Below are positions 25,003 to 63,279 of a stretch of DNA of 64,000 nt, piece by piece; within the stretch, counting starts at the first letter, position 1, and every line of letters starts with the position of its first letter. This stretch comes from Nitrosopumilus sp. (GTDB lineage Archaea; Thermoproteota; Nitrososphaeria; Nitrososphaerales; Nitrosopumilaceae). A model generated the notes under the pieces. That model was given only the letters and a program-made list of their open reading frames with translations, was not told the DNA's origin and did not search any database. The translations under genes were made by a program, and so were the position numbers. Where the stretch lies: positions 1,344,001 through 1,408,000 of the forward strand of contig OZ241981.1 of the NCBI GenBank assembly GCA_965204345.1, in the 5' to 3' direction.

Positions 25003-25014
25003 GAGATATATGAA

Positions 25015-28720: not shown

Positions 28721-31700
28721 TTGAGCAAAAGCCAGACTTTTGCCACATTTGACACAGTTTTACAAAAAATTAGAGATGAATCAAACAGCCCATTTGAACT
28801 TGGTGAGAAATTTGAAAAACTTGTATTTAATTTTCTAACAACTGACAAACTCTATACAAAGAGGTTTGAAAAGGTCTGGACATGGACGGACTGGGCAAAA
28901 GAGAACAAGATCAAAGAGTCATTGGGTACAGGCCATGATCTTGGAATTGATATTGTGGCATTAGAAGATGATGGAAAACTTTGTGCCATACAGTGCAAGT
29001 GCTATCATGATGAGAACATTCTGGAAAAAAAGGATGTTGACAGCTTTGTTGCAGCAAGGGTTGCCTACAATATGGACTACTGCATTTTGGTCAGTACATC
29101 CCCTGTCAATGATAATGCAATGGCCATGCTCATAGGTGCAAAATGTACCATCCTAGATACTGAGCACCTCAGAAACAGCAGCATTGACTGGTCAGAGTAT
29201 CCAAAGATCAAGGCTAGAAAGCCAAAGAAACTGCGAGACTATCAGGAACTGGCAATGGATGATGTGATACAGGGATTCTCAAAAAATTCCAGAGGCAAAA
29301 TGATAATGGCGTGTGGTACCGGCAAAACGTTAGTATCACTACACATAGCAGAAAAACTTGCAGGCAGGGGCGGAACAGTTCTGTATCTGGTACCATCAAT
29401 ATCCCTAATCCTGCAAAGCATGCGTGAATGGTCTGAGAACTCTAACATTCCTCACTATTACATGGCAGTCTGCTCTGATACAAGCATCAGAAATGATGAT
29501 GGTTCCCTAACAGAACTAGAGACTCCCGCATCAACTGACCATCATCTCTTGTCAGAAAGGCTCTCAAAAATATCCAAACAAAAGATGAACGTGGTATTTT
29601 CCACGTATCATTCAATCGATGTGGTCATGGACTCAATGAAAGGATCGTTTGATATCGTACTGTGCGATGAGGCACACCGCACGGCAGGAATCGAAGGCAG
29701 CAGTGGCAAAGAGTCATACCTCACACTGGTACACCACGACACCAACATAAAGGCAAAAAAGAGGCTGTACATGACGGCAACGCCAAGAATATACACAGAG
29801 AATGTAAAAAGCAAGGCAAGGCAAAAAGAAAAGGTGATCATCTCAATGGATGACCAGTCCATATACGGACCTGAATTTCACCATCTGACCTTTTATGATG
29901 CAGTCCACAAGTATGATGCATTATCGGATTTCAAGGTGCGTGTTGCAGTCATGGATGGCGACACCATGGATAAGACAATTCAGGGACTAGTATCAGATGA
30001 TGATAACCAGATTCCGTTAAACGAAAAGACCCTGATGGCCTCAATGTGGCACGCACTGGAATATCCCGGTGCAGGAGATGAGAAAGAGCTGCTCCAAAGG
30101 GTAATTGTATTTTGTGACATGATAAACTCATCCAAACTGTTTGCAGGAGATGAGATAACCTACAAAAAAGATGTGCGGGAAAATTCCGAAGAGTTTGAAA
30201 GGATCAAGGAAATCGATAAGAACCGCTCGTTTGTCAGGCTGGTAAACTATGTCAAAAAAGTCAAGAAGGATTCAGATATCACAAGGCCAGCAGTAAGACA
30301 TGTAGACGGAGGGGATAACGCCCAATACCGAAGAAAGCAGCTTGACTGGTTGCGGGACAGTGAAGATGATCCAAATATCTGTAGAATGTTATCAAACGCC
30401 AGATGTCTGTCTGAAGGTGTTGATGTTCCCGCATTAGATGGTGTGGTGTTTATGAATCCACGAAAATCAGTAGTGGATGTGGTCCAGGCAGTCGGCAGAG
30501 TCATGCGCAAATCACCTGGAAAGGATTATGGATATGTCATACTGCCAGTTGCAATACCTGCCGGAATGAAGATAGAAGACGCACTAGGTGACAGCAAGCA
30601 CTTCAAGGTGGTCTGGCAGGTTCTAAACGCGTTACGCTCTCATGATTCCCGGTTTGCAGATGAGATAAACAAGCTGATACTAGATCCGCCTGATGGCACC
30701 AGTAATGACATTACAAACAGGATAATAATCAGACATGCAGGCAGTCACGGCCTCTCCAGTCTTGAGATGCCCGCAGAAAAGATGATTGAGGGTATTGCCA
30801 CCAAGCTTGTCGAAAAGGTAGGCGATGTTGATTACTATGACACGTATGGAAGAACCATCGGTGAGACAACAAAGGCAGTAGAGACTAGAATAAAAAATAA
30901 ACTGGATGGATCACCACAACTGCAAAATTATTTTAATTCGTTTCACGACGGACTAAAACAGCTAGTCAACGAGAACATTACAAAGGATGAGGCACTACAG
31001 ATAATCGGTCAGCACATTGTAATGTCTCGTGTATTTGATGCAATGTTTTCAGGAGAGTTTACATCACGCAACCCACTATCACAAATACTAGAAAAGATAG
31101 CAGGAAAGTTTGGCTTACAGGAGGAGCTAAAGATACTAGAGCCGTTTTATGAGCAGGTAAGACGAGAGATTCAGGGAATTAAAACCAGAGAAGCAAGACA
31201 GAATTTCATCAAAAAGATATATGGCAACTTTTTTTCCAGTGCCGCAAAAGAGCAATCAGAACAACACGGCATTGTATACACGCCAGTTGAGGTCATTGAT
31301 TTTATCATAAACAGCGTTGAGATTCTGTTAAAGAAACACTTTGGGCTGGGCTTTAATGATCGTTCAGTCAAAGTACTAGAGCCGTTTGCCGGAACCGGGA
31401 CATTTATCACCCGTCTTTTGGAATCAGGCTATATTCATGATAATCTGTACGAGAAATACAAACATGACATCTTTGCAAACGAGATGATATTATTAGCGTA
31501 CTATATCGGAACAGTAAACATAGAGACGACATATTCTAGCCTGCAAAATCACAACAGATATGTTCCCTTTAATGGAATTAACTATACTGATACAATAAAA
31601 CATCCCGCAAGATATAGGGAAGACCCAAGGCACAGACAGGAAACCACCAAGATAAACGAAGACTTTGTAGCAGTACATGCTAGGAATAGATATCAAAACG

Positions 31701-33475
31701 CCTCGCACCTGCATGTTCTGATGGGGAATCCTCCGTATTCGGCAGGACAAGACGATTTTAACAAGGGCACGCCAAACAAGAAATATTCTGACCTTGATCC
31801 AAGAATAAAAGACACGTATATTTCCAGAGTTAAGAAAATCAACCCAACTCTTACCAATACTGTATCACTGTATGATTCCTACATACGCTCAATTCGATGG
31901 GCATCAGATCGGATTGGAAATTCCGGAATTATTGGGTTTATCACCAATGCAAGCTTTATCAGATCTGATGCAACAGCAGGACTGCGTGCATGCCTTGAAG
32001 AAGAGTTTGATGAGGTATGGTGTTTTGATTTGAGAGGCGATGCATATACACAAGGAGAATTGCGTAGAAAAGAAGGTGGTAATGTATTTGGTTCTGGTTC
32101 CAGAACTCCGGTTGCAATCACTATACTGATCAAAAATCCTACAAAGAAAAAATGTGTCATACATTACAAGGACATCGGTGATTATCTCACAAGAGAGCAA
32201 AAACTAGGAAAAATATCTGAACTAAAGTCCATAAACGGAATAAAGGACTGGGAGAAAATTTCTCCAGACAAACATCATGACTGGATTGACCAACGCCCTA
32301 AAGGATTTTCAAAATACACTCCAATTGGAAGCAAAGAAACAAAGTCAGGCGCATATGTAAATGCTATTTTCAGAATATATTCCAGTGGAATTAAAACTCA
32401 TCGTGATGTATGGGCATATAATTCATCTAAAGATGAGCTTGGCAAAAATATGAAAGTACACATTAATTATTGTAATTCGCAAGATCTGAATAAACCAAAA
32501 ATCGATCCAACGCAAGGCAAATGGACAGCAAGCTTAAGTGACAAATTAAAACAAAATAAGACAAAACCCAAATTCGATGACAATAAAATTAGAACTGCAT
32601 CCTATAGACCGTTCTTCAAACAGAATCTATATTTTGATAATGTTTTTGTCGAGATGACCTACCAAATACCAAAATTCTTTCCAGAAAATTCCTCAAAAAA
32701 CTTGGTAATCTGCATACCCGATAAAGGCAAACTTGGAATGTTTTCTGTTATTGTAACAGATGTGACTCCTGATCTTCACATAATCGAACAATCTCAATGT
32801 TTCCCACTATACGTATACGAAAACAACAAGGACAAAAAACTCAACATTACAGACTTTGCGTTAAAAGAATACCAGCAACACTATAACGACTCAAAAATCA
32901 CAAAAAAATCAATCTTTTATTACGTCTATGGCATATTGCACCATACACAGTACAAGAAAAAATTTGCAAACAACCTTACACGGGAACTGCCACACATTCC
33001 AATGGCTCCAGACTTTTGGAAGTTTAGCAAGGCAGGAGAAAGACTGGCAGACCTGCATCTAAACTATGAGACCTGCAAGAGATATTCCCTGGGCAAGCCC
33101 AAATCCAAATTTGGCAACCTGGAAAAGATGGCGTATCCAAAGATGAAAAAAGATGATAAACAGATAGCAGACAAGACAAAACTTAGGATAAATGGAGTTA
33201 TAACATATGAGAACATTCCATCTGTCAAATATCAGATTAATGGCAGAACACCACTAGAGTGGCTAATAGACAGATACCGTTTTACAACAGACAAGGATTC
33301 TGGAATTACAAACAATCCAACAAAAGATATGACCGAACAAAAGACCATAGAGATGATTGAGAGAATTCTATACATCAGCACAGAATCAGATAAGATAATT
33401 GCAGAGTTCTCAAGACTGCCATTTGAGCCAAAAGACTGGGAGCCCAAAAAGACTGGCCTTGATGCGTATGGATAG
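28721..33475 (+). CDS. Type ISP restriction-modification enzyme (Mrr-like nuclease, SF2 helicase, N6-MTase, TRD; LlaGI/LlaBIII-like)
   Basis: GIDIVA...AIQCK; MACGTGKT; DEAH; QAVGRVMR; EPFAGTG; GNPPY; C-terminal TRD. Confidence 0.93.
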   Translation: MSKSQTFATFDTVLQKIRDESNSPFELGEKFEKLVFNFLTTDKLYTKRFEKVWTWTDWAKENKIKESLGTGHDLGIDIVALEDDGKLCAIQCKCYHDENILEKKDVDSFVAARVAYNMDYCILVSTSPVNDNAMAMLIGAKCTILDTEHLRNSSIDWSEYPKIKARKPKKLRDYQELAMDDVIQGFSKNSRGKMIMACGTGKTLVSLHIAEKLAGRGGTVLYLVPSISLILQSMREWSENSNIPHYYMAVCSDTSIRNDDGSLTELETPASTDHHLLSERLSKISKQKMNVVFSTYHSIDVVMDSMKGSFDIVLCDEAHRTAGIEGSSGKESYLTLVHHDTNIKAKKRLYMTATPRIYTENVKSKARQKEKVIISMDDQSIYGPEFHHLTFYDAVHKYDALSDFKVRVAVMDGDTMDKTIQGLVSDDDNQIPLNEKTLMASMWHALEYPGAGDEKELLQRVIVFCDMINSSKLFAGDEITYKKDVRENSEEFERIKEIDKNRSFVRLVNYVKKVKKDSDITRPAVRHVDGGDNAQYRRKQLDWLRDSEDDPNICRMLSNARCLSEGVDVPALDGVVFMNPRKSVVDVVQAVGRVMRKSPGKDYGYVILPVAIPAGMKIEDALGDSKHFKVVWQVLNALRSHDSRFADEINKLILDPPDGTSNDITNRIIIRHAGSHGLSSLEMPAEKMIEGIATKLVEKVGDVDYYDTYGRTIGETTKAVETRIKNKLDGSPQLQNYFNSFHDGLKQLVNENITKDEALQIIGQHIVMSRVFDAMFSGEFTSRNPLSQILEKIAGKFGLQEELKILEPFYEQVRREIQGIKTREARQNFIKKIYGNFFSSAAKEQSEQHGIVYTPVEVIDFIINSVEILLKKHFGLGFNDRSVKVLEPFAGTGTFITRLLESGYIHDNLYEKYKHDIFANEMILLAYYIGTVNIETTYSSLQNHNRYVPFNGINYTDTIKHPARYREDPRHRQETTKINEDFVAVHARNRYQNASHLHVLMGNPPYSAGQDDFNKGTPNKKYSDLDPRIKDTYISRVKKINPTLTNTVSLYDSYIRSIRWASDRIGNSGIIGFITNASFIRSDATAGLRACLEEEFDEVWCFDLRGDAYTQGELRRKEGGNVFGSGSRTPVAITILIKNPTKKKCVIHYKDIGDYLTREQKLGKISELKSINGIKDWEKISPDKHHDWIDQRPKGFSKYTPIGSKETKSGAYVNAIFRIYSSGIKTHRDVWAYNSSKDELGKNMKVHINYCNSQDLNKPKIDPTQGKWTASLSDKLKQNKTKPKFDDNKIRTASYRPFFKQNLYFDNVFVEMTYQIPKFFPENSSKNLVICIPDKGKLGMFSVIVTDVTPDLHIIEQSQCFPLYVYENNKDKKLNITDFALKEYQQHYNDSKITKKSIFYYVYGILHHTQYKKKFANNLTRELPHIPMAPDFWKFSKAGERLADLHLNYETCKRYSLGKPKSKFGNLEKMAYPKMKKDDKQIADKTKLRINGVITYENIPSVKYQINGRTPLEWLIDRYRFTTDKDSGITNNPTKDMTEQKTIEMIERILYISTESDKIIAEFSRLPFEPKDWEPKKTGLDAYG

Positions 33476-50059: not shown

Positions 50060-51478
50060 ATGCCCCTTGCATCTAGAGCAATTTCACGTGATTCAGTCAA
50101 AACCTTCATCATGTATGTTCTAAGCAAAAGGGGAACAACAATATCAGTAATCGAGGAGAAAAAAAACAGGAAATATGATGGAGATGCATCACAAAAGAAA
50201 TATCAAGACAAGCATGTATGGATCACTAGAAATGATCTAATAGAATCTGTTGCAAAATTACTAAAGATCAATAAAAATTTGTGGGGTCCAAACCGAAACT
50301 CAAACAAGTTTCACAACATAGTCGATCAAGAGATTGGAAAACTGAGGCGCAAAAAGGAGATAGTAGACTGGAGCAGTACCAAACAGCTCGGAATATTCAG
50401 GCTCGAAGAAAATACTTCTGGTTTAGATGAATTACCAAATATGACTTTAGAAGATCCATCGCCTCAAAAAAATAATCATGATCCCTACACTGATACATCT
50501 GAGCAAAATCTCAAAAAAATATTCATATCCATAATTTCTGAATCCTCAAAATCCAACACCTATAAATTCACCCTTGCCAAGTCCCTCTTGGATTACTGTA
50601 AAGAAACTGATGAAAATAAGCCAACATACGAAATACCATACACATACTTTGCAAGTAAATTTTTAAAATATTATTGGTATCAGGAATACAAATTCAGAAT
50701 GAAACAAGATTATCTTAGTAAAGGAAAACCAAATGTCATCCAACAGATTAACAGTGTCTTTGGGGATAATCCTCCCGGAGATTTTAGCCTGCTTGAGAAA
50801 AACGACATAGATGCTGCAGAGCAAAAAATACTCAAAGCCGTGTTTGGTAGCATTCGGTCAAAAAAATCGATTGTTATTCCTGCATTTCAAAACATTTCAG
50901 TTGGACAAGGTGCAGAAGAGCGCAAGGTATTTTATGACTATGACAACAAAAGTAAAAAGCTATATCTTCGGAAAGAGGCATTTGATTTTTTCAAAAAAAA
51001 TAACAGCATACTATCAAAAGCAGTTCTTGCAGAGTGGGCAAAATTCCTAGAAAAGATCAATCATTCACTACCACGACTAGTTGCAAAGATCGATCAGTAC
51101 GATCTAAAGCGGGGTTCGCTAAATACGGTTCGAAACATGTATCTAAAACATACAGATCACTGCTTTTACTGTGCAAGTAAACTAGAAGATGATTACATTG
51201 AAGTAGATCATTTTATTCCATGGTCATACATATTTGATGATGCTGTATGGAACTTGGTCCTGTCCTGCAAAGACTGCAACCGCAAAAAAAGCAATTCACT
51301 TGCAGAGGAAGAGTTTCATCAGGCACTAATTAAAAGAAATTCAAGGCACTATGAAAAAATAAGAGAACTGCAAATCTCCCTGGATCAACTAAACACAGGC
51401 AAAGGCTGGAAACCGGTGATCAAAAATCACTATGTGACTTGCAAGGACTATGGATTTGCAATGATACGAATGCCTTAA
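50060..51478 (+). CDS. HNH endonuclease with Mrr-N-like winged helix
   Basis: NTYKFTLAKSLL; CFYC...EVDHFIPWS...WNLVLSCKDCNRKKS. Confidence 0.85.
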   Translation: MPLASRAISRDSVKTFIMYVLSKRGTTISVIEEKKNRKYDGDASQKKYQDKHVWITRNDLIESVAKLLKINKNLWGPNRNSNKFHNIVDQEIGKLRRKKEIVDWSSTKQLGIFRLEENTSGLDELPNMTLEDPSPQKNNHDPYTDTSEQNLKKIFISIISESSKSNTYKFTLAKSLLDYCKETDENKPTYEIPYTYFASKFLKYYWYQEYKFRMKQDYLSKGKPNVIQQINSVFGDNPPGDFSLLEKNDIDAAEQKILKAVFGSIRSKKSIVIPAFQNISVGQGAEERKVFYDYDNKSKKLYLRKEAFDFFKKNNSILSKAVLAEWAKFLEKINHSLPRLVAKIDQYDLKRGSLNTVRNMYLKHTDHCFYCASKLEDDYIEVDHFIPWSYIFDDAVWNLVLSCKDCNRKKSNSLAEEEFHQALIKRNSRHYEKIRELQISLDQLNTGKGWKPVIKNHYVTCKDYGFAMIRMP

Positions 51479-51737: not shown

Positions 51738-52078
51738 ACCAGTAATAAAACTGATATCCCACAAAATTAGGCACTGCCAAATTCAAAATTGGCAAGACTG
51801 ACTCGTTTTTCTTTGGAGATCATCAAAAAATTGGCAAATCAGAAAGAGAATACATAATGGATATAATTTCAGATTTTATTGATAAAAAGAAATGGCAAAA
51901 TAATTGACATTTTATTTTTTGTACTAGCATTCAAGTTATAAAATCTTAGAATTAATGATTATTGTTTTTAATTGGTACAAAACAAACTGATATGAGAATT
52001 AAAAACTTCTGTTTCTATCAAGTAGATATAAAAACCCTAAAATTAACTAAATTCAATTGTTATATACACAGCGTGAGA

Positions 52079-53254
52079 ATGTCTTCAATAATTGAAAAAC
52101 TTTTACATCTATTAAAAAGAAACCAAGATTTTTTTAATGTATCATTTGGACATATAATAAGTACTGGTTTAGCTGGACTATTCTTCTTTATTTTAGCTTA
52201 TATAATGGAAGTTGATTCTTATGGAGAACTAGGATTTTTATTTGCCATTGCTCTTCTTTCGACACAGGTTTCATTATTAGGGTTTGTTCCAACCAAAATT
52301 ATAAAAATTTCTAAAGGCGAGAATAAAATAAAATCCCTATCTAGCGTTGTTGTTTTACTATCTGGTATTATACTCGGAGCAATAATTGCCATATTATTAA
52401 ATAATATTTTTATCTTTTTTTTGGTAATTAGTCAGGCATTTTTTTTGTTATCAACTGCAGATTATCTTGGAGAAAAAAAATACAAAATATATGCCCAAGT
52501 GTTGATCGGTCAAAAAACTGTTCAACTCTTATTGGCAATTATCTTGTTTTATCTCCTTGATGTTAATGGAATCTTACTTGGAATTTCTATTGCAAGCATG
52601 ATTTTTGGAATCAAATCTTGTTCACATCTTTCAAGATTCTCTTTAGATATTTCTGAATTCAAAAAAATTTTTAGATTATTAATGCATAGTTATTCTTTAG
52701 AATTATCAAAAGCAGTTTTATTTTTTTCAGACAAAATAATTATTGCTCCTTTATTTGGATTTACTGTTTTAGGAATATACCAAATAGCTTCTCAATTTTT
52801 ATTGGCTTTATTGATTATCCCAACCATACTGTTTCACTATTTGTTATCTGAAGAAGCTTCGGGTAAAAATAAGGCAAAACTTAGAATTAAAGGAATCTTA
52901 ATATGTTTAGTTTTGGGCGTTATTATGTTTTTTACTCCTCCTGTTTTAATTCCAGAATTTTTACCCAATTTTGAAGAATCTATTTTACCTGCACAAATAA
53001 TGGCATTAGGGTTAATACCAATAACTGTCTCATATTCAATTAATTCGAAACTGCTATCTTCAGAAATGAGCAAACCTGTATTGATTTCCTCATTAATTTT
53101 TGTCTGTTCGGAATTTGTTTTACTATATTATTTTGGAAACATGTGGCAGGTTGTTGGATTGTCAATAGCATTGGTCATATCATCAAGCCTGCAGGCAATA
53201 TTTTTGCTCATCGTATATGTTATGATTTATAAAAAAACAAAAAAAGAGATCTGA
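52079..53254 (+). CDS. Oligosaccharide flippase family protein
   Basis: Multi-TM; SDKIIIAPLFGFTVLGIYQIA. Confidence 0.8.
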   Translation: MSSIIEKLLHLLKRNQDFFNVSFGHIISTGLAGLFFFILAYIMEVDSYGELGFLFAIALLSTQVSLLGFVPTKIIKISKGENKIKSLSSVVVLLSGIILGAIIAILLNNIFIFFLVISQAFFLLSTADYLGEKKYKIYAQVLIGQKTVQLLLAIILFYLLDVNGILLGISIASMIFGIKSCSHLSRFSLDISEFKKIFRLLMHSYSLELSKAVLFFSDKIIIAPLFGFTVLGIYQIASQFLLALLIIPTILFHYLLSEEASGKNKAKLRIKGILICLVLGVIMFFTPPVLIPEFLPNFEESILPAQIMALGLIPITVSYSINSKLLSSEMSKPVLISSLIFVCSEFVLLYYFGNMWQVVGLSIALVISSSLQAIFLLIVYVMIYKKTKKEI

Positions 53255-53269
53255 TAGGGTGAGAGATAG

Positions 53270-54022
53270 ATGGCCTATACTAAAATAATGTCTTGTTTTG
53301 TGATGGTCTGGTTTGTTGTCGTTGTTATTAGCATTATTGTTGTTCAACCCAGTTATGCGAATCTTCAAGATAATCTGATAGGAGGCAGTGATTTTGAAAA
53401 GTTAAAAATTCTTGAATATGACAAGAATCGCTTTGGCCTGTTTGGCTCTGATCAGTTAAAATGGATCATAAACTGGAATGGTGAGAGTTGGCAAGAGGAA
53501 ACCCTGTTTGTTCAAGCAAGTAGCACTGCGTCCAAAATAACGTTTCTTGCCAGTGGAACTGACCGTCTTCATTTGGATGATATTGCACTGTCAAAAACAT
53601 CGCTTGGGAAAAATTCAAACGAGTTTGCATTGGATTTAATTCCTCAAAAAAGAGCTATTACAAACGAGCAAGATGCGCCGTTTCTGCTTGAGATAAACCC
53701 GATCTCTTTGGATTCCACCTCTGCTGCTGCCACTCCCATGATACAACTAGACGTTGTTTATGATCAAAATGATTTCAAAGAAATATCCGTAAATCCCGAC
53801 AGCGGGATTCCCCCATTCAAATCAGTCATTTTGGTCCATCCAGCACAAACTTCTGGAATAAAAAACTTCACCATACTTTCGCAGGATAGTCTTGATAATA
53901 ATGTACAGGTTGTGGGAACCGTTGAAATACAAGAACCAAAAAACACATTTCTCTGGAATTTAATCATTGGCATACTGACAATTTTATTGGCATTGGGACT
54001 GTTCAAAGTAATCAAGAAATAA
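53270..54022 (+). CDS. Exported protein with C-terminal TM anchor
   Basis: Signal peptide and C-terminal hydrophobic helix. Confidence 0.7.
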   Translation: MAYTKIMSCFVMVWFVVVVISIIVVQPSYANLQDNLIGGSDFEKLKILEYDKNRFGLFGSDQLKWIINWNGESWQEETLFVQASSTASKITFLASGTDRLHLDDIALSKTSLGKNSNEFALDLIPQKRAITNEQDAPFLLEINPISLDSTSAAATPMIQLDVVYDQNDFKEISVNPDSGIPPFKSVILVHPAQTSGIKNFTILSQDSLDNNVQVVGTVEIQEPKNTFLWNLIIGILTILLALGLFKVIKK

Positions 54023-54055
54023 AAATTCTTCTGTATTGGCAGCGCGTACTGCTGT

Positions 54056-56749
54056 CTATGTTTTCACTTTGAATAAGGCAGCTTCACCTTCTCTAATGAC
54101 TAATTGCAATTGAGGATTATCCTCAAAGAGGGCTATTCGTTCAGAAGTACTTATGTGAAGAGCTGGAAATACTGGTAGAAGATGCTGTCGTGCCGCTTGT
54201 TGTCTGTTTTGGGGATCACCGCCAGTAATTAACACATATTCAATACCATACTTGTCCAATATTTCCATCATTTTCATGTCTCCGGGATGGTGTAATACAA
54301 GGTTAGCCTCATATGCTCTCTCTTTTAGAAATGTATCATCTGGCACAACATTGGTGCTTATTCTTTTCCACATTTCTCTGTTATTAGTTATATCAAATAT
54401 CTTTATTGATGAAAGCCACATTCCTTCAGTAGTTCTATCCTCAAGGATGGTTGTATTTGAATCAAGATTGTCATTCATCCAACCCATAACTTTTAATTCA
54501 TTGCTTGTAGGTAAATATCCTAGCAAACCATCTTTATACTCGTATGAAATATGAGTATCAAGACTTGGAATTAGTGCAATAAAAACCAACGAGCAAATCA
54601 CTATGGACAAGACTGATTTTGAACGTAATGAAATTTCGCGTTTGTTAAACCTAGTTGCAAGTTTATCAAAAATATCAACCCCTGCTAAAATTATTCCTAT
54701 TTGAGAGATGATAGCTCCTAGTAAAACAAGTCTGTCAGGATACATAAACCAGAAAAGATTCTCATAAATTACTTTATTTGATATTGTTCCAAACACTAGG
54801 GAAAACATTACAATCAAAAATAAACTAAACTCTCGATTGGATTTAAACAACCAAGTTGCAGAAAGAACCCCCCCTAGTAATAAAATAAAATAAGGAAAAT
54901 ATATAGAATCTATGTTGTATATGTCCATCTCCTCTAGAAAGATCCACCAAAAGTCGACCCTAGCACCATGTTCCTGAATCAATTCATCTGCAAAATAAAC
55001 CAGTGATGCGCCTGATGTTACTACCAAAATAATTAACGCCAATCGTAAAGAAGTAAGCATATAGTTTTTTATCTTAAATTTCCCGACTCGCAGTCCATTT
55101 GTTTTGGAGTTTATGGGGGATTTTAAGAGTATTAATTTAATAATTATAAACAAAACAAAGGGAACGATCATGATAGTATATGTGATAAATATTACAACTG
55201 ACAATAGCGAATAAATAATAAAATTAGAATTATTTTTATTATTAATAACTATGCTGATAAAAAGCAAAAGTATGCAAGTAAATGTAGCAAATACAAAAGT
55301 GCCCCCTTCTAATGGAGTAAGTAGTACATCATCAAATAGTATAAAATAACCTACTTCATTTCCTGGAATAAAAAACAATGCTCCAAATGCAATGCTTGCC
55401 AAGTAATACGATTTGGTTTTTTTGTATATTATTGAAAAACAGATGGGCGGCAAGAGTGCAACAATTGTTGCTGTGACGGCATATTGGGATATTGGCAGCA
55501 TGACGTTTGTAATCAAAGAAAAAAATGCAGTCAAAGCATGAAATCCCTGAGGATAAACTGTCATTCCATATGGCAAATCAAAAAATGGCCAATTATTGTT
55601 AAACACACTCGTATGATACATTATAAATTGCGAAGCGTGACCATGGTATTGCGGATCATGAATCGGCGGCCAGCTCATATTTTCTGCAATTATAAAAAAG
55701 TGAGTCAGTGACAGAATTATGAGTATGCCTGCAATCAGATTTGGAAGAACTTTTTCATTTTTAATTTCAGACAGAATTTTAGCTCTGTCTCTGAAAATCA
55801 AGTAAGAGCCAACCATCATAAACGAAAAGAAGGCTGTCAGAACAGTAGTCTGTGTAAAGTGAAGCATTGCCAGAAAAATCGCCAAAAGAATCAGCAATAC
55901 CAAGCCAAAGGCAGAGTACAGGGAAAAATTAATTACAAATCCAAAATTCAGCTTGTATCGGATAATTTTTAATAGAAAATACCCCATAATAACTGAAGAC
56001 GACAAATAAACAATCATGGATGTCAGTATCTCGTTTTTAAAATTCGACCTGTCTGAACCTATTTTGCTGTCAAATAATCCAGGCACTACCTCTGCATTTG
56101 CAATGTTCAGGCGCTGTGCTAGCTGTGCGTGATATTCTACATCAAATAATCCAGGCACTACCTCTGCATCTGTAATGAGCGTGGTCTGGGAATAAGAGTC
56201 CCCTCCGTTTACAAATGTAATTCTAAGAGACTTGACATTGCCAGGATCAAAGCCAGGTTTATTTTGAACGTAATTGGAGGGATCTACAATAACTTTTGCC
56301 CAAGTGCCATCTTCTAAACCAAACCACTGTGGCAAATTCCAAAAAGGACGCTGTATATCATTTGCATCAACCATGATCAAAAATGCATTAGCCCTCCATG
56401 CTTCAGGAGTACTTTTATTTATTCCAGCCACATTTTCAAGATTCATCCAAAATCGTAATCCTTGGCCCGTAGACAGATCCACAGGCTTGGAAAAACGGCA
56501 CTCAAGAACTGCTGTTTCTGTGGCATCACTGCTGGAAAAATAACTATAGGTAAAATCGCTATCATCATCATCATCATCACTATTCATATTCAGAGATTTG
56601 TCCAAAAAACTAGACTCTGAATCCCACGTACATTTATTCTCACTGTCAGACTCGAAAACATAAAAATCATGAAGATTTTCGGCAAATACAATTGATGGCA
56701 ACGCACATAATACCAACAAAACAAGTGCTATCCCACTAACAAGAAACAA
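54056..56749 (-). CDS. GT-C fold (STT3/AglB- or DUF6541-like) membrane glycosyltransferase, allele A
   Basis: Signal peptide, extracellular domain, many TMs, HDPQYH, YPQGFH, WMNDNL...LDKYGIEYVL. Confidence 0.7.
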   Translation of the reverse strand: MFLVSGIALVLLVLCALPSIVFAENLHDFYVFESDSENKCTWDSESSFLDKSLNMNSDDDDDDSDFTYSYFSSSDATETAVLECRFSKPVDLSTGQGLRFWMNLENVAGINKSTPEAWRANAFLIMVDANDIQRPFWNLPQWFGLEDGTWAKVIVDPSNYVQNKPGFDPGNVKSLRITFVNGGDSYSQTTLITDAEVVPGLFDVEYHAQLAQRLNIANAEVVPGLFDSKIGSDRSNFKNEILTSMIVYLSSSVIMGYFLLKIIRYKLNFGFVINFSLYSAFGLVLLILLAIFLAMLHFTQTTVLTAFFSFMMVGSYLIFRDRAKILSEIKNEKVLPNLIAGILIILSLTHFFIIAENMSWPPIHDPQYHGHASQFIMYHTSVFNNNWPFFDLPYGMTVYPQGFHALTAFFSLITNVMLPISQYAVTATIVALLPPICFSIIYKKTKSYYLASIAFGALFFIPGNEVGYFILFDDVLLTPLEGGTFVFATFTCILLLFISIVINNKNNSNFIIYSLLSVVIFITYTIMIVPFVLFIIIKLILLKSPINSKTNGLRVGKFKIKNYMLTSLRLALIILVVTSGASLVYFADELIQEHGARVDFWWIFLEEMDIYNIDSIYFPYFILLLGGVLSATWLFKSNREFSLFLIVMFSLVFGTISNKVIYENLFWFMYPDRLVLLGAIISQIGIILAGVDIFDKLATRFNKREISLRSKSVLSIVICSLVFIALIPSLDTHISYEYKDGLLGYLPTSNELKVMGWMNDNLDSNTTILEDRTTEGMWLSSIKIFDITNNREMWKRISTNVVPDDTFLKERAYEANLVLHHPGDMKMMEILDKYGIEYVLITGGDPQNRQQAARQHLLPVFPALHISTSERIALFEDNPQLQLVIREGEAALFKVKT
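56070..56177. repeat. Repeat-spacer-repeat unit inside allele A (36-bp repeat, 36-bp insert, in frame)
   Basis: 28 bp exact (56070-56097, 56142-56169) extending to 36 bp with 2 mismatches; absent from allele B. Confidence 0.9.
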
Positions 56750-56799
56750 CAGATTCTAAAATTTTCTTGTTTATTTACTTTTTTGTTATGAGGTTCTGT

Positions 56800-57843
56800 T
56801 CTATTGTACGAAAATTATGTCCGCCTAAGCTCAGGCTTCAGACAAGGGATTATTACCGCATATACCGATCACGAATAATGAAGAGAACCAGACTAAAAGG
56901 AGATCAGACCAGATACATCATACGGCAGCATCAAAAGGGCACAGCTGCAGCAGTCTGGCCCAGACCATGCAGGTCAGCGCAAGACACGTCAGACGCATAT
57001 GGGCAGCCTACCGCAAGACCGGAAGAATACTCCCCCACAGAAAGGCAGAAAGACCCAGAAAGATACCATCACCTGAGGATGTACGTCGTGTTCTTAAGAC
57101 ATATGATGATATTCATGCAGTAGTGCGCACGACTCGCCACCTCAGAAAGTCATCTCATATAAGCTACCATACGGTATACCAAATAATGAAATCCAACGGA
57201 CTGGCCAGACTGTCTCCTGAAAAATCCAAGAAGAGGAAATACGTCAGATACGAGCGACTGTATTCCAATGCAATGTGGCATGTGGACTGGCCAAAATGAA
57301 GGATCCACGCCTGAAAGGACTGCAACTTGTGGCATATCTGGATGATGCATCAAGATGCATAACGGGATTCGAGATATTTGAGTGCCACAAGCCAGAACAC
57401 TGTAGCCGTTTTGCGCAAGGCTATCAAGTCATTTGGCACGCCAGGCCAGATACTTTCAGACAATGGAGCCTAGTTCACATCCCGGAACCGCGGTGTACCT
57501 GCCAAGGGATGGAAGCCCACCAACCCTGTTTGAGTCAGAAGCCCTGGAGAGGTGTATTGTCCTGATTGACTCGCGCTCTCACCACCACCACCCGCAGACC
57601 AACGGCAAGATTGAAAGATTCTTCAAGACACTTGAGGATGAGATTGTACACTTTAAGACGATGGAGGAGTTCATCGACTTTTACAATGAGGATAGGCTGC
57701 ATTTTTCTCTGGACATAGAGAACTGCCAGATGCTCCTGATGGCATTTAAGGCCAAAAAGGTTCCTGATGCGATCAGGAAAAACAACCAAAAATGGATGGA
57801 GGCAGATATGAATGACTAGCGGACATAATTATCATATAATACA
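56800..57843 (+). mobile_element. IS481-family element copy 1, frameshifted transposase
   Basis: 25-bp imperfect TIRs (T.TATT.TA.GA.AATTATGTCCGC); WHVDW, YLDDASR, PQTNGKIERFFKTL motifs. Confidence 0.9.
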
Positions 57844-58058
57844 GCCTTCCTCCTCCTCCTCTTTATCTTTATCATCATCGTCTTTATCATGCCTACCTCT
57901 TGAGTCTCGCGTAAAAACTATCACCTTGTGTTTCTCTGCGAGTCTGCCATCTGCTTTTTTTCCAATAATGCAGTCTGCCCTTGTTCCGATTATTTTTCCA
58001 TCTCTGGGAGTCTGCCAGCTAATTCTTTTCCAATAAAGCTGGTGCTGCCCCCAATTAT
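57844..58058 (-). pseudogene. Remnant resembling a duplicated NAD-dependent epimerase N-terminus plus low-complexity tail
   Basis: IIGGSTSFIGKELAGRL and IIGKKADGRLAEKHKVIVFTRD. Confidence 0.4.
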
Positions 58059-59102
58059 TGTATTATATGATAATTATGTCCGCTAGTCATTCATATCTGC
58101 CTCCATCCATTTTTGGTTGTTTTTCCTGATCGCATCAGGAACCTTTTTGGCCTTAAATGCCATCAGGAGCATCTGGCAGTTCTCTATGTCCAGAGAAAAA
58201 TGCAGCCTATCCTCATTGTAAAAGTCGATGAACTCCTCCATCGTCTTAAAGTGTACAATCTCATCCTCAAGTGTCTTGAAGAATCTTTCAATCTTGCCGT
58301 TGGTCTGCGGGTGGTGGTGGTGAGAGCGCGAGTCAATCAGGACAATACACCTCTCCAGGGCTTCTGACTCAAACAGGGTTGGTGGGCTTCCATCCCTTGG
58401 CAGGTACACCGCGGTTCCGGGATGTGAACTAGGCTCCATTGTCTGAAAGTATCTGGCCTGGCGTGCCAAATGACTTGATAGCCTTGCGCAAAACGGCTAC
58501 AGTGTTCTGGCTTGTGGCACTCAAATATCTCGAATCCCGTTATGCATCTTGATGCATCATCCAGATATGCCACAAGTTGCAGTCCTTTCAGGCGTGGATC
58601 CTTCATTTTGGCCAGTCCACATGCCACATTGCATTGGAATACAGTCGCTCGTATCTGACGTATTTCCTCTTCTTGGATTTTTCAGGAGACAGTCTGGCCA
58701 GTCCGTTGGATTTCATTATTTGGTATACCGTATGGTAGCTTATATGAGATGACTTTCTGAGGTGGCGAGTCGTGCGCACTACTGCATGAATATCATCATA
58801 TGTCTTAAGAACACGACGTACATCCTCAGGTGATGGTATCTTTCTGGGTCTTTCTGCCTTTCTGTGGGGGAGTATTCTTCCGGTCTTGCGGTAGGCTGCC
58901 CATATGCGTCTGACGTGTCTTGCGCTGACCTGCATGGTCTGGGCCAGACTGCTGCAGCTGTGCCCTTTTGATGCTGCCGTATGATGTATCTGGTCTGATC
59001 TCCTTTTAGTCTGGTTCTCTTCATTATTCGTGATCGGTATATGCGGTAATAATCCCTTGTCTGAAGCCTGAGCTTAGGCGGACATAATTTTCGTACAATA
59101 GA
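58059..59102 (-). mobile_element. IS481-family element copy 2 (reverse complement of copy 1)
   Basis: Identical ORF translations; same TIRs. Confidence 0.9.
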
Positions 59103-59152
59103 ACAGAACCTCATAACAAAAAAGTAAATAAACAAGAAAATTTTAGAATCTG

Positions 59153-61771
59153 TTGTTTCTTGTTAGTGGGATAGCACTTGTTTTGTTGGTATTATGTGCG
59201 TTGCCATCAATTGTATTTGCCGAAAATCTTCATGATTTTTATGTTTTCGAGTCTGACAGTGAGAATAAATGTACGTGGGATTCAGAGTCTAGTTTTTTGG
59301 ACAAATCTCTGAATATGAATAGTGATGATGATGATGATGATAGCGATTTTACCTATAGTTATTTTTCCAGCAGTGATGCCACAGAAACAGCAGTTCTTGA
59401 GTGCCGTTTTTCCAAGCCTGTGGATCTGTCTACGGGCCAAGGATTACGATTTTGGATGAATCTTGAAAATGTGGCTGGAATAAATAAAAGTACTCCTGAA
59501 GCATGGAGGGCTAATGCATTTTTGATCATGGTTGATGCAAATGATATACAGCGTCTTTTTTGGAATTTGCCACAGTGGTTTGGTTTAGAAGATGGCACTT
59601 GGGCAAAAGTTATTGTAGATCCCTCCAATTACGTTCAAAATAAACCTGGCTTTGATCCTGGCAATGTCAAGTCTCTTAGAATTATATTTGTAAACGGAGG
59701 GGACTCTTATTCCCAGACCACGCTCATTACAGATGCAGAGGTAGTGCCTGAATTATTTGACAGCAAAATAGGTTCAGACAGGTCGAATTTTAAAAACGAG
59801 ATACTGACATCCATGATTGTTTATTTGTCGTCTTCAGTTATTATGGGGTATTTTCTATTAAAAATTATCCGATACAAGCTGAATTTTGGATTTGTAATTA
59901 ATTTTTCCCTGTACTCTGCCTTTGGCTTGGTATTGCTGATTCTTTTGGCGATTTTTCTGGCAATGCTTCACTTTACACAGACTACTGTTCTGACAGCCTT
60001 CTTTTCGTTTATGATGGTTGGCTCTTACTTGATTTTCAGAGACAGAGCTAAAATTCTGTCTGAAATTAAAAATGAAAAAGTTCTTCCAAATCTGATTGCA
60101 GGCATACTCATAATTCTGTCACTGACTCACTTTTTTATAATTGCAGAAAATATGAGCTGGCCGCCTGTTTTTGATCCGCAATACCATGGTCACGCTTCGC
60201 AATTTATAATGTATCATACGAGTGTGTTTAACAATAATTGGCCATTTTTTGATTTGCCATATGGAATGACAGTTTATCCTCAGGGATTTCATGCTTTGAC
60301 TGCATTTTTTTCTTTGATTACAAACGTCATGCTGCCAATATCCCAATATGCCGTCACAGCAACAATTGTTGCACTCTTGCCGCCCATCTGTTTTTCAATA
60401 ATATACAAAAAAACCAAATCGTATTACTTGGCAAGCATTGCATTTGGAGCATTGTTTTTTATTCCAGGAAATGAAGTAGGTTATTTTGTAATTTCTCATG
60501 ATGTACTACTTACTCCATTATCTACAGGAACTTTTGTATTTGCTACATTTACTTGCATACTTTTGCTTTTTATCAGCATAGTTATTAATAATAAAAATAA
60601 TTCTAATTTTATTATTTATTCGCTATTGTCAGTTGTAATATTTATCACATATACTATCATGATCGTTCCCTTTGTTTTGTTTATAATTATTAAATTAATA
60701 CTCTTAAAATCCCCCATAAACTCCAAAACAAATGGACTGCGAGTCGGGAAATTTAAGATAAAAAACTATATGCTTATTTTACGATTGGCGTTAATTATTT
60801 TGGTAGTAACATCAGGCGCATCACTGGTTTATTTTGCAGATGAATTGCAGAAGATAAATAATATTCCGATCACCACTTACTGGCTATTATTTGAGAATAT
60901 GGACATATACAACATAGATTCTATATATTTTCCTTATTTTATTTTATTACTAGGGGGGGTTCTTTCTGCAACTTGGTTGTTTAAATCCAATCGAGAGTTT
61001 AGTTTATTTTTGATTGTAATGTTTTCCCTAGTGTTTGGAACAATATCAAATAAAGTAATTTATGAGAATCTTTTCTGGTTTATGTATCCTGACAGACTTG
61101 TTTTACTAGGAGCTATCATCTCTCAAATAGGAATAATTTTAGCAGGGGTTGATATTTTTGATAAACTTGCAACTAGGTTTAACAAACGCGAAATTTCATT
61201 ACGTTCAAAATCAGTCTTGTCCATAGCGATTTGCTCGTTGGTTTTTATTGCACTAACTCCAAGTCTTGATACTCATATTTCATACGAGTATGACGATGAT
61301 TTGCTAGGATATTTACCTACAAGCAATGAATTAAAAGTTATGGGTTGGATGAATGACAATCTTGATTCAAATACAACCATCCTTCAGGATAGAACTGGTG
61401 AAGGAATGTGGCTTTCATCAATAAAGATATTTGATATAACTAATAACAGAGAAATGTGGAGAAGAATACACAGTAGTGTTGTGTTAGATGATACATTTCT
61501 AAAAGAGAGAGCATATGAGGCTAACCTTGTATTACACCATCCCGGAGACATGAAAATGATGGAAATATTGGACAAGTATGGTATTGAATATGTGTTGATT
61601 ACTGGCGGTAATCCGAAAGACAGACAACGATCGGATGCGTACCCGCTTCTACCAGTATTTCCAGCTCTTCACATAAGTACTTCTGAACGAATAGCCCTCT
61701 TTGAGGATAATCCTCAATTGCAATTAGTCATTAGAGAAGGTGAAGCTGCCTTATTCAAAGTGAAAACATAG
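59153..61771 (+). CDS. GT-C fold membrane glycosyltransferase, allele B
   Basis: Paralogue of 54056-56749 with patchwise differences. Confidence 0.7.
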   Translation: MFLVSGIALVLLVLCALPSIVFAENLHDFYVFESDSENKCTWDSESSFLDKSLNMNSDDDDDDSDFTYSYFSSSDATETAVLECRFSKPVDLSTGQGLRFWMNLENVAGINKSTPEAWRANAFLIMVDANDIQRLFWNLPQWFGLEDGTWAKVIVDPSNYVQNKPGFDPGNVKSLRIIFVNGGDSYSQTTLITDAEVVPELFDSKIGSDRSNFKNEILTSMIVYLSSSVIMGYFLLKIIRYKLNFGFVINFSLYSAFGLVLLILLAIFLAMLHFTQTTVLTAFFSFMMVGSYLIFRDRAKILSEIKNEKVLPNLIAGILIILSLTHFFIIAENMSWPPVFDPQYHGHASQFIMYHTSVFNNNWPFFDLPYGMTVYPQGFHALTAFFSLITNVMLPISQYAVTATIVALLPPICFSIIYKKTKSYYLASIAFGALFFIPGNEVGYFVISHDVLLTPLSTGTFVFATFTCILLLFISIVINNKNNSNFIIYSLLSVVIFITYTIMIVPFVLFIIIKLILLKSPINSKTNGLRVGKFKIKNYMLILRLALIILVVTSGASLVYFADELQKINNIPITTYWLLFENMDIYNIDSIYFPYFILLLGGVLSATWLFKSNREFSLFLIVMFSLVFGTISNKVIYENLFWFMYPDRLVLLGAIISQIGIILAGVDIFDKLATRFNKREISLRSKSVLSIAICSLVFIALTPSLDTHISYEYDDDLLGYLPTSNELKVMGWMNDNLDSNTTILQDRTGEGMWLSSIKIFDITNNREMWRRIHSSVVLDDTFLKERAYEANLVLHHPGDMKMMEILDKYGIEYVLITGGNPKDRQRSDAYPLLPVFPALHISTSERIALFEDNPQLQLVIREGEAALFKVKT

Positions 61772-61855
61772 ACACAGCAGTAAATGAAATGTAATGTATG
61801 ATGCGTGGTCAAAATGCTCTGAAAGATTTATTCAGTGAAAACATAGACAGCAGTA
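61751..61855. repeat. Degenerate duplication of gene 3' end around a ~37-45 bp insert
   Basis: TTATTCA(AA)GTGAAAACATAGAC(AC)AGCAGTA at 61751-61782 and 61828-61855; single copy in left arm. Confidence 0.8.
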
Positions 61856-62120
61856 CGCGCTGCCAATAATGTATTATATGAAAATCATATCCGCTAGTCA
61901 TTCATGTCTGCCTCCATCCATTTTTGGTTGCTTTTTCTGATCGCATCAGGAACCTTTTTGGCCTTAAATGCCATCAGAGGCACCTGGCAGTTCTCTATGT
62001 CCAGAGAAAAATGCAGTCTATCCTTATTGTAAAAATCGATGAACTCCCCCATCGTCTTAAAGTGTACAATCTCATCCTCAAGTGTCCTGAAGAATCTCTC
62101 AATCTTGCCGTTGGCCTGCG

Positions 62121-62317
62121 GGTGGTGGTGGTGGTGGTGGTGGTGGTGGTGGTGGTGGTGGTGGTGGTGGTGGTGGTGGTGGTGGTGGTGGTGGTGGTGG
62201 TGGTGGTGGTGGTGGTGGTGGTGGTGGTGGTGGTGGTGGTGGTGGTGGTGGTGGTGGTGGTGGTGGTGGTGGTGGTGGTGGTGGTGGTGGTGGTGGTGGT
62301 GGTGGTGGTGGTGGTGG
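62121..62317. repeat. (GGT)~65 trinucleotide tract
   Basis: Perfect tract; only 4 units at the homologous site in IS copies 1 and 2. Confidence 0.95.
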
Positions 62318-62774
62318 GAGCGTGAGTCAATCAGGGCAATACTCCTCTCCAGAGCTTCTTCCTCAAACATGGTGAGCCTCTATCCCTTGGCAGGTATACC
62401 GCGGTTTCGGGATGTGAACTGGGCGCCGTTGTCTGAAAGTATCTGGCCTGGCGTGCCAAATGACTTGATAGTCTTGCGCAAAACGGCTACAGTGTTCTGG
62501 CTTGTGGCACTATCAAATATCCCGAATCCCGTTATGCATCTTGATGCATCATCCAGATATGCCACAAGTTGCAATCCTTTTAGGCGTGGATCCTTCATTT
62601 TGGCCAGTCCATATCCCACATTGCATTGGAATACAGTCACTCGTATCTGACGTACTTTCTCTTCTTGGATTTTTCAGGAGACAGCTTAACTAGTCCATTG
62701 GATTTCATTATTTGGTAATGCTGTATGGTATCTTATATGAGATGACTTTCTGAGGTGGCGAGCTGTGTGCACTA

Positions 62775-62884
62775 CTGCATGAATATCATCATATGTCTTA
62801 AGAACACGACGTTTAAGTGGTGACGGCATCGTCTAGGGCTTCGAGCCTGCATGAATATCATCATATGTCTTAAGAACACGACGT
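62775..62884. repeat. Repeat-spacer-repeat unit inside IS copy 3 (38-bp exact repeat, 34-bp insert)
   Basis: CTGCATGAATATCATCATATGTCTTAAGAACACGACGT at 62775-62812 and 62847-62884. Confidence 0.95.
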
Positions 62885-63279
62885 ACATCCTCAGGTGATG
62901 GTATCTTTCTGGGTCTTTCTGCCTTTCTGTGGGGGAGTATTCTTCCGGTCTTGCGGTAGGCTGCCCATATGCGTCTGACGTGTCTTGCGCTGACCTGCAT
63001 GGTCTGGGCCAGAACAGATGCTGCACCTGTGCCCTTTTGATGCTGCCGTATGATGTATCTAATCTGAACTTCTTTTAGTCTGGTTCTCTTCATTATTCGT
63101 GATCTGTATATGCGGTAATAATCCCTTGCCTGAAGCCTGAGCTTAGGCGGACATAATTTTCGTACAATAGATTTGCGAAACCAGATGAAAGACTAAAAAC
63201 GTTAAAACTGGATGATGATGATCCTGCTCATGCAAGAGATGTTAATTAATATGAAGTATTTTCAGCAGTACTAACACAC

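Follow-up and report, generated by a model that had tools for sequence, protein, structure and literature searches.

Hypervariable segments set in the homogenised backbone of a multigene family are known for surface antigens. In the vlsE/vls system of Borrelia and the pilE/pilS system of Neisseria, arrays of near-identical copies stand in inverted orientation, short and mostly amino-acid-changing variable segments alternate with invariant ones, and gene conversion is segmental. In the diversity-generating retroelements, hypervariation is limited to short defined segments of a ligand-facing domain. For the UDP-glycosyltransferase arrays of trypanosomatids, which are host-associated organisms, the sections of PMC5853035 drawn on here tie the expansion of glycosyltransferase genes to a variable surface glycan coat. 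The present analysis concerns a stretch of 64,000 nucleotides (the window; contig OZ241981.1 of assembly GCA_965204345.1, positions 1,344,001 to 1,408,000) from the genome of a sponge-associated, Nitrosopumilus-like ammonia-oxidising archaeon, and two genes in it: copy A (54056-56749, minus strand, 897 amino acids) and copy B (59153-61771, plus strand, 872 amino acids) of a gene with the Pfam domain DUF6541 and a GT-C-type fold. A first-pass annotation had described hypervariable patches in this pair; the observation is confirmed, and it is larger than first described, as the pair belongs to a family of 11 copies. The known pattern of hypervariable islands in a concertedly evolving family appears here in an uncharacterised GT-C-type family of an archaeal symbiont, and the near-identical copies, differing in patches beside the predicted active site, suggest a panel of enzymes that varies the sugar coat of the cell. 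Nothing comparable was found, neither for a GT-C-type membrane glycosyltransferase nor for an archaeon, in the literature on glycosyltransferases of sponge Thaumarchaeota and on the diversification of GT-C paralogues.

The locus departs from each of these systems. Unlike the vls and pilS arrays, every copy is a full-length open reading frame (ORF) with the same promoter-like upstream box, no truncated silent cassettes were found in the genome, and the product is an enzyme-like polytopic membrane protein whose variable parts lie around a catalytic-type site and not on an antigenic surface. Unlike the diversity-generating retroelements, the genome shows neither a reverse transcriptase nor a template repeat, the changes are not adenine-specific, and several patches are spread across 1.5 kb. 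The trypanosomatid arrays are eukaryotic and nucleotide-sugar-dependent, and the same sections of PMC5853035 report no pattern of identical backbones with active-site patches.

The gene family and its predicted fold

A blastn search of the genome with the gene returned 11 full-length intact copies, all of them complete ORFs of 872-897 amino acids: A and B in the window, C about 35 kb further on, and D-K in an array at C1:2006423-2033940. The array consists of eight units with an exact period of 3609 bp. Three of these are on the minus strand and five on the plus strand, so that the array, too, forms an inverted repeat, its centre measuring about 340 bp. Each unit comprises the DUF6541 gene and a convergent partner ORF of 250 amino acids, which has a signal or anchor helix at its N-terminus and an anchor at its C-terminus. 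About 40 nt upstream of the gene are common to all 11 copies, with a TAAATAAA box lying 26-33 nt ahead of the start codon, and because this box is common to all, each of the copies may be expressed. The assembly is of metagenome type (2.12 Mb in 9 contigs, 99.7% complete, Nitrosopumilus-like); a repeat joins the two ends of its main contig, and its eight small contigs are strain variants of other regions. The search for further copies or donor cassettes proposed in the first-pass annotation thus produced full copies but no partial cassettes: blastn gave only the 11 copies, and 31 patch queries found nothing else in the genome than chance matches of up to 17 nt.

Outside this genome, the protein query matched none of 40 genomes (24 congeners and 16 others of the order), and the DUF6541 profile gave one weak match each, never more than one, in 38 of 150 other genomes of the genus; these matches are ORFs of about 650-760 amino acids (one in a 300-amino-acid frame) that correspond to AglB of the present genome. 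A word search of 5.8 billion proteins returned only the four clusters of this genome, 56 pattern matches in a scan of genome contigs and 106 in a scan of metagenome contig proteins (JGI) included no confirmed relative, and an exact 32-nt backbone pattern had no match in the metagenome contigs. A HMMER search of 1.84 billion representative proteins collected 99 relatives, the best foreign one 32% identical, and among the Pfam control genomes DUF6541 was present in Corynebacterium. By these searches the eleven-copy family is confined to this genome among those covered, and since the congeners have no multi-copy relatives, it looks as if it had been acquired and amplified in this lineage.

Both window copies matched DUF6541 (PF20176) and no other Pfam family, with 54.3 bits (A) and 52.6 bits (B) against a gathering cut-off of 29, over profile positions 32-645 of 646. 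In the genome-wide scan with this profile six of the 11 copies were scored, all of them above the cut-off (seven of the 17 first-look candidates were scored). NCBIfam has no family for the gene, and the literature search found no mention of DUF6541. In an alignment of 79 sequences of the family, the sole invariant residue is D341 (copy B numbering, as throughout), the D of the DPQYH motif, in the consensus WPPxGDxxxHG; the near-invariant residues include G459, R648, W732 and D746, and G459 and D746, too, are flanked by patches.

The AlphaFold2 model of copy B has a mean predicted local distance difference test value (pLDDT) of 84.7 and a predicted template modelling score (pTM) of 0.86. At E <=1e-3, 23 of its 24 Foldseek matches were GT-C enzymes (STT3, AftA, DPY19, PglB, ALG12, AglB). 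The VIA Z scores ranged from 12.8 to 19.8 over 417-492 aligned residues, with yeast STT3 at 19.8 (model residues 301-872 against chain residues 6-684), PglB at 16.5, AglB at 15.3, ArnT at 14.6 and AftA at 13.9; a Z of 13-14 is possible for unrelated helical bundles, and 16-20 is above that level. The N-terminal residues 30-205 resemble carbohydrate-binding modules (CBMs), namely CBM30 (Z 12.6) and CBM11 (Z 11.0). At the sequence level, the PDB was searched with the profile and yielded no link to a solved chain, the matches being spurious transmembrane ones, the best of them (E 0.0065) to a peptide permease. On the strength of the model, the protein is of GT-C fold, closest to STT3/PglB, and can be called glycosyltransferase-like, which bears out the identity given to it in the first-pass annotation. 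The predicted domain plan begins with an external CBM-like beta-sandwich and three extra N-terminal helices, followed by an STT3/PglB-like transmembrane (TM) core and a C-terminal external domain; about 11 helices are counted from the TM1 equivalent onwards, besides the three extra ones, by DSSP and the positive-inside rule only.

The likeness to STT3, AglB and PglB (GT-C, PF02516) extends over residues 301-872, where these enzymes are the best structural matches (the AglB compared was AfAglB) and where, as in them, a TM core is followed by a C-terminal external globular domain. Since the model aligns with STT3, the helix 310-334 corresponds to TM1 of STT3 and the D341 loop to its first external loop (EL1); D341 stands seven residues after that helix, in a loop without any K or R and therefore predicted to be outside. 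In STT3-type enzymes EL1 carries catalytic acidic residues, according to the parts of PMC8342417 used here, and by its position D341 would be a putative catalytic residue. That a patch adjoins the putative catalytic D of DPQYH, as was first noted, agrees with the invariance of D341 and with patch 1 touching it. Further likeness lies in the weak detection of the congeners' AglB by the DUF6541 profile.

Membership of the STT3 family was considered and rejected, since the STT3 profile (PF02516) misses all 11 copies, matching instead at C1:1294587, 1418771 and 1425436, WWDYG is absent and Pfam gives DUF6541 only. None of the WWDYG, DK/MI and DXD motifs occurs in the sequence of copy A or B; there is the single D341 in FDPQYH instead of DXD, with an HD/DD pair in the second external loop. 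The only WW of the pair is found in patch 3 of copy A, between TM helices, and W732 and N736 are conserved in the C-terminal domain. Unlike STT3, AglB and PglB, the protein has the CBM-like domain and the three extra helices, about 11 core helices by this count instead of 13, and it is multi-copy with hypervariable loops, whereas the canonical AglB of the genome is a single ORF of 712 amino acids.

A second comparison is with the mycobacterial arabinofuranosyltransferases AftA and AftD, which act on polysaccharide acceptors. AftA holds ranks 2-3 among the Foldseek matches (E 7.6e-7, target-normalised TM score 0.51), the VIA Z scores are 13.9 for AftA, as above, and 11.2 for AftD, and a GT-C core is combined with soluble domains of carbohydrate-binding type in both. 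Unlike here, AftA and AftD are single-copy and conserved, the order of domains is different, and there is no match at the sequence level.

Anatomy and position of the variable islands

Copies A and B form the outer parts of an inverted repeat of about 3.8 kb (54047-57843 against 61782-58059) with a copy of an insertion sequence (IS)-like element on the inner side of each arm. The inner parts of the arms (56142-57843 against 59760-58059), made up of the first 600 nt of the gene together with the IS-like copy, differ at only 3 of 1702 nt (99.8% identity), and the remaining 2063 nt contain 73 differing positions. The coding sequences of A and B differ at 79 of 2616 aligned bases and by indels of 72 nt and 3 nt. 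These mismatches are strongly clustered: 55 gaps between neighbours are of 3 nt or less (random mean 6.8, maximum 17 in 10,000 random placements), and the sequence between clusters is free of mismatches for up to 414, 403, 328 and 316 nt. The near-identical backbone with clustered, mostly non-synonymous patches was therefore described correctly, and the eight residue replacements then listed are all present in the A/B protein alignment (IHD/VFD, ILFD/VISH, EG/ST, IQEHGARVDFWWIFLEE/QKINNIPITTYWLLFEN, KDG/DDD, EDRTT/QDRTG, KRISTNVVP/RRIHSSVVL and DPQNRQQAARQH/NPKDRQRSDAYP). The inverted repeat with its IS copies, the 11 paralogues, the variability of the same codons in all of them and the raised silent divergence described below had gone unnoticed. 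The differences at codon positions 1, 2 and 3 number 31, 29 and 19 in the whole gene and 13, 8 and 6 in the longest patch, so that the change of positions 1-2 with retention of position 3, claimed for that patch, is a tendency only. Of the substitutions 38 are transitions and 41 transversions, and 17 columns of the family alignment contain three or more bases.

In the alignment of the 11 copies, 89 of 897 codon columns are variable, 80 with a change of residue and nine purely synonymous; 19 columns contain three to five different residues, for instance F/H/I/V directly ahead of the conserved Asp or, in the long patch, A/F/V/W/Y. The same seven windows are variable in every copy (residues 335-342, 442-459, 566-583, 714-716, 745-749, 770-778 and 815-831), and about 30 isolated single changes lie outside them. 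Patch 1 (SWPPVFDP in copy B, 60155-60178 on the plus strand; copy A, 55652-55675) flanks D341, codon 340 being F, H, V or I. Patch 2 (copy B, 60476-60529, plus strand; copy A, 55301-55354) occupies a predicted external loop and ends at G459. Patch 3, the longest (copy B, 60848-60901, plus strand; copy A, 54926-54979), is predicted to cover the external end of a TM helix and a loop and has eight alleles among the 11 copies. Patch 4 (copy B, 61292-61300, plus strand; copy A, 54527-54535), with the alleles DDD, KDG, KDN and DDG, comprises the first residues of the C-terminal domain, in which patch 5 (QDRTG in copy B, 61385-61399, plus strand; copy A, 54428-54442) flanks D746. These are followed by patch 6 (copy B, 61460-61486, plus strand; copy A, 54341-54367) and by the window of patch 7 (copy B, 61595-61645, plus strand; copy A, 54182-54232), whose variable core is 820-831 and which has seven alleles in the 11 copies.

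The patch alleles fall into types. Copy A has type I alleles, which match those of copy C, and copy B has type II alleles like those of the array copies; in patch 3, A and B have only 27 of 54 nt in common, type I being as different from type II as shuffled sequence, with no intermediates. A compensated frameshift as the source of patch 3 was rejected, the gapped A/B alignment scoring 3.0, the 95th percentile of shuffles. In the eight units with a partner gene, the DUF6541 gene has 112 variable columns out of 2694, 106 of them in the 1694 columns at the 3' side, and the adjoining spacer and partner gene together have one variable site in 866 nt. For comparison, an unrelated inverted duplicate of 4234 nt in the same island is free of mismatches. 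An in-frame insertion of 72 nt in copy A (56096-56167, minus strand), which repeats the AEVVPGLFD motif of the stretch linking the CBM-like domain to the first TM helix, recurs among the 11 copies only in array copy G.

The variable residues were assigned to sides of the membrane from the model helices, the positive-inside rule (20 K and R in the loops assigned inside, one in those assigned outside) and the aligned ranges. Variable are 27 of 117 residues in external loops, 21 of 163 in the C-terminal external domain, 23 of 300 in membrane helices (four of these at the outer end of one helix), two of 79 in cytoplasmic loops and seven of 189 in the external CBM-like domain. The catalytic-side external regions are thus enriched against the cytoplasmic loops (Fisher P = 3.6e-4) and against the CBM-like domain (P = 3.5e-6), in agreement with the external position claimed for the patches. 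Several patch residues touch conserved ones: V339 and F340 precede D341, S457 and T458 precede G459, and Q745 and G749 lie around D746. The proposed equivalence of the FWW/YW patch (patch 3) with the WWDYG region of STT3 had to be abandoned, as this patch lies between membrane helices, four helices ahead of the C-terminal domain. By helix counts it would rather resemble a long loop of EL4/EL5 type, and the parts of PMC8342417 used here describe that loop in STT3-type enzymes as part of both substrate sites.

The same alleles occur in sponge metagenomes. Thirteen sequencing runs from four studies (2010, 2019 and two of 2024) contain at least half of the sampled words of the gene; one of them may be the source sample. 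In the four runs whose contigs were compared, one per study, 75-85% of the words of the gene are present, and in all four the contigs end at the patches, as expected for several variants on a common backbone; in runs X2 and X4 some parts of the gene have no contig cover. These contigs carry type I, type II and E/H/K-type patch alleles and the 72-nt insertion, whose inserted letters are identical in runs X2 and X10. A low-depth contig of run X4 combines an E/H-type patch 3 with a B/D/F/K-type patch 2, and a low-depth contig of run X2 a K-type patch 3 with the KDN allele, combinations absent from the 11 copies. In runs X1 and X10 the backbone contigs are 6-9x deeper than the contig with the copy-B-specific patch, a weak hint of copy number, as contig depth does not equal copy number.

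Selection, exchange and competing origins of the islands

The pairwise ratio of non-synonymous to synonymous divergence (dN/dS, Nei-Gojobori) is 0.98-2.94 in the 52 pairs of copies with a finite ratio and above 1 in all of them except B-K, with a pooled pN/pS of 1.33; the remaining three of the 55 pairs are I-J, without any difference, and D-F and E-H, each with four replacement changes and no silent one. A tree-free count of minimum changes, crude and blind to recombination, gave a dN/dS of 1.44 for all columns (P = 0.044), 1.33 for the patch windows (P = 0.12) and 1.74 for the backbone (P = 0.17), and the unambiguous single-base steps are 84 non-synonymous and 16 synonymous (expected silent share 0.219, P = 0.093). 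The dN/dS is high for a polytopic enzyme-like protein, yet it is not robustly above 1. Silent sites are affected as well: in codons with an invariant residue, silent differences occur in 5 of 28 codons of the patch windows (20 silent sites) and in 4 of 789 of the backbone (516 silent sites), a silent divergence about 30 times higher in the patches. Positive selection on new mutations alone is therefore insufficient, and what has to be explained is a local divergence of all kinds, biased towards replacements, and not merely replacements on a young duplicate; silent differences near the patches are what linked old alleles would give. The diversifying selection first proposed thus stands as a direction, with 51 of 52 pairs above 1, but its size is modest (1.3-1.5, P = 0.04-0.12) and it does not account for the silent sites. 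In the four-gamete test, all four combinations occur in 120 of the 528 pairs of variable segments and in none of the 28 patch-to-patch pairs, recurrent mutation being possible among the 11 sequences; together with the 72-nt insertion of A and G, these counts suggest that sequence is exchanged among copies and loci.

We consider it somewhat better than an even chance that the family is a panel of GT-C isoenzymes with homogenised backbones, in which selection preserves the differences between substrate-facing loops. The backbones, the spacers and the partner gene are kept near-identical by recent duplication, or by ongoing gene conversion and unequal crossing-over. About seven short islands would be exempt from this homogenisation, since the loop alleles that they encode differ in function and are held apart by selection; they comprise the external loop with the catalytic-type Asp341, two more external loops and the C-terminal domain. 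Only within a few codons of the selected islands would linked silent differences survive. Each copy would work at the outer face of the membrane with a lipid-linked sugar as donor, and its acceptor specificity, its donor specificity or both would be set by the patches, so that the cell could own a panel of up to ten isoenzymes diversifying the glycans of the S-layer or envelope, possibly under pressure from adsorbing viruses or from recognition by the sponge host. A role as virus receptor, which had also been suggested, is disfavoured, as the CBM-like domain, more exposed than any other part, hardly varies and a receptor could not be hidden with eleven apparently expressible copies. If the patches do set specificity, the family would be a natural experiment that marks the specificity-determining loops of an uncharacterised GT-C family, a candidate explanation of the way in which a sponge symbiont alters the glycans of its envelope to counter viruses or recognition by its host, and an unusually clean case of the interplay between gene conversion and selection at a resolution of tens of bases.

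Several points weigh against this panel of isoenzymes. Homogenisation up to islands that lie 5-28 codons apart demands many short conversion tracts, and the two types of patch 3 have no intermediates. All 11 full copies derive from one assembly, no outgroup is closer than 32% identity, and the Logan contigs of the metagenome runs may be chimeric across repeats. The topology comes from a model and not from three-dimensional coordinates, and no RNA is on record among the 13 runs with the gene. The weak significance of the dN/dS, finally, leaves room for a neutral or mutational origin of the islands, which we hold to be unlikely. Unconstrained loops would then have drifted, early heterology would have blocked gene conversion locally, and the divergence would have snowballed with no selection for diversity. 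The ratio of the patch windows (1.33), not significantly above 1, and their 30-fold raised silent sites fit such an origin, as does the poor conservation of most patch positions in the wider family (0.2-1.5 bits in patches 3, 4, 6 and 7). Drift would, however, hardly spare the cytoplasmic loops (2/79) and the CBM-like domain (7/189), nor poorly modelled stretches such as residues 523-536, which are without any variation; some variable positions are conserved in the family or stand next to invariant residues (F340, Q745), 19 columns have at least three residues at the same codons, and all 11 copies are still intact.

Rather improbable, in our view, is an import of the patches by recombination from diverged alleles of other symbiont strains, in which case the identity of the backbones would reflect a recent sweep or amplification and not long-term maintenance. 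The unrelatedness of type I and type II patch 3 at the DNA level is what such mosaics would show, the X4 and X2 contigs combine patch alleles unlike any of the 11 copies, and the small contigs of the assembly are strain variants of other regions. The supposed donors, however, are missing from the databases searched: the 5.8 billion proteins contain no diverged donor and the best foreign relative stands at 32%, the 150 congeners gave nothing beyond the single AglB, and the JGI metagenome contigs gave nothing. Imports confined to the same seven places, at 6-54 nt each, would require selection in their own right, and the new combinations may be chimeras of the Logan assembly across repeats.

A programmed repertoire seems doubtful: a GT-C array whose active-site loops are diversified and reshuffled by a dedicated mechanism independent of reverse transcriptase, or by micro-conversion steered by selection, giving a combinatorially variable glycan coat. 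If it were true, it would be antigenic variation acting through enzymes and not through an antigen gene. Targeted diversification by a mechanism of a kind not yet described, independent of reverse transcriptase and writing changes into defined segments of the gene, is very unlikely. It would explain why, within continuous repeat units, variable sites are about 50 times denser in the gene than in the spacer and partner gene next to it, and why silent and replacement sites are both affected in the same windows of all copies. Against it, the 99.7%-complete genome has no RVT_1 match, partial donor cassettes were absent (31 patch queries, chance matches of up to 17 nt), the changes are not base-specific (38 transitions, 41 transversions), most of the interleaved conserved codons are untouched (23/28), and the alleles recur in runs from 2010 to 2024 and are hence stable; identical alleles recurring over 14 years argue against continual rewriting. 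A diversity-generating retroelement in particular was rejected, with no reverse transcriptase (the RVT_1 profile scan of the genome gave no match, and control genomes were positive), no template copies and changes that are not adenine-specific. Lastly, an assembly artefact, by which single-copy alleles of strains were strung together or palindromic long-read chimeras formed, is scarcely credible: inverted repeats are a recognised artefact class and this metagenome-type assembly has eight small variant contigs, but the differences between the arms follow a pattern, a unique 215-bp spacer and IS copies stand between them, the array units repeat at exactly 3609 bp and meet unique flanks at distinct junctions, the main contig is self-closing, and the deeper backbone in runs X1 and X10 (6-9x) weakly hints at several copies.

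Genomic surroundings of the copies

The copies lie in low-GC islands of surface-glycan genes (flippase-type, GT1/GT4, GT2, sulfotransferase, methyltransferase and sugar-nucleotide genes), which are also rich in IS copies and young repeats. Beside copy A, a convergent partner ORF of 250 amino acids (53270-54022, plus strand), with a signal or anchor helix and a C-terminal TM helix, corresponds to that of the 3609-bp array unit and is invariant; it matched no Pfam or NCBIfam family, and a comparison with a protein atlas gave only a candidate lead to CBM_4_9 (0.78). The unit is adjoined by a polysaccharide-biosynthesis membrane protein of flippase type (51962-53254, plus strand; PF01943, 28.7 bits against a cut-off of 28.2), and just upstream of this gene lies one for a protein of 472 amino acids (50060-51478, plus strand) that ends in an HNH_4/HNH nuclease domain and whose N-terminal part matches no family.

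Between the two genes, the arms of the inverted repeat contain an IS-like element at 56767-57843 (plus strand, left arm) and, by the arm alignment, a second copy at 58059-59135 (minus strand, right arm), separated by a unique central spacer of about 215 bp (57844-58058). The transposase of this element is split across overlapping frames (ORFs of 118, 110, 96 and 128 amino acids with HTH_21 and rve_3 fragments) and is either frameshift-dependent or decayed. A third, diverged copy (92-97% identical) lies downstream of copy B (61870-63171, minus strand) and carries a (CAC)n run of about 225 nt, which encodes about 75 consecutive histidines within an rve-like ORF (61894-62370); at that place the two IS copies that lie between the genes have no more than HHHH. 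Related IS copies are found elsewhere in the genome at C1:1422217-1423254 and 1440074-1441117. Copies B and C have in common a 77-nt insert after the stop codon (61772-61860 behind copy B), ending with a second copy of the last 17 nt of the gene, as if the gene end had been duplicated.

Elsewhere in the window, a Type ISP restriction-modification enzyme of 1584 amino acids is encoded at 28721-33475 (plus strand; Mrr_cat, ResIII/helicase, coupler, N6_Mtase and Type_ISP_C domains), and at 23476-25977 cytochrome oxidase subunit I is followed by a protein of 320 amino acids with a plastocyanin-type copper domain, as is typical of ammonia-oxidising archaea.

The island at 1.385-1.446 Mb is a patchwork of young repeats throughout. 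A tandem repeat with a period of about 3598 bp and 100% identity (C1:1406292-1414371; 1406292-1410773 against 1409890-1414371) begins within the last 1.7 kb of the window. The unrelated inverted duplicate of 4.2 kb surrounds an IS copy (C1:1417232-1421453 against 1423254-1427487) with no mismatch and one gap; each arm of this 4234-nt duplicate encodes an ORF of 721 amino acids with a weak STT3 match, so that the genome has, besides the 11 DUF6541 copies, three STT3-like genes (the canonical 712-amino-acid AglB at C1:1294587 and these two ORFs). At C1:1428002-1432249 (minus strand) a giant secreted-type protein of more than 1416 amino acids with five CBM_11 repeats adjoins sulfotransferase, GT4 and epimerase genes, and the segment with the GT4 gene and two epimerase genes (411, 344 and 326 amino acids) is duplicated at 99.9% beside array copy K.

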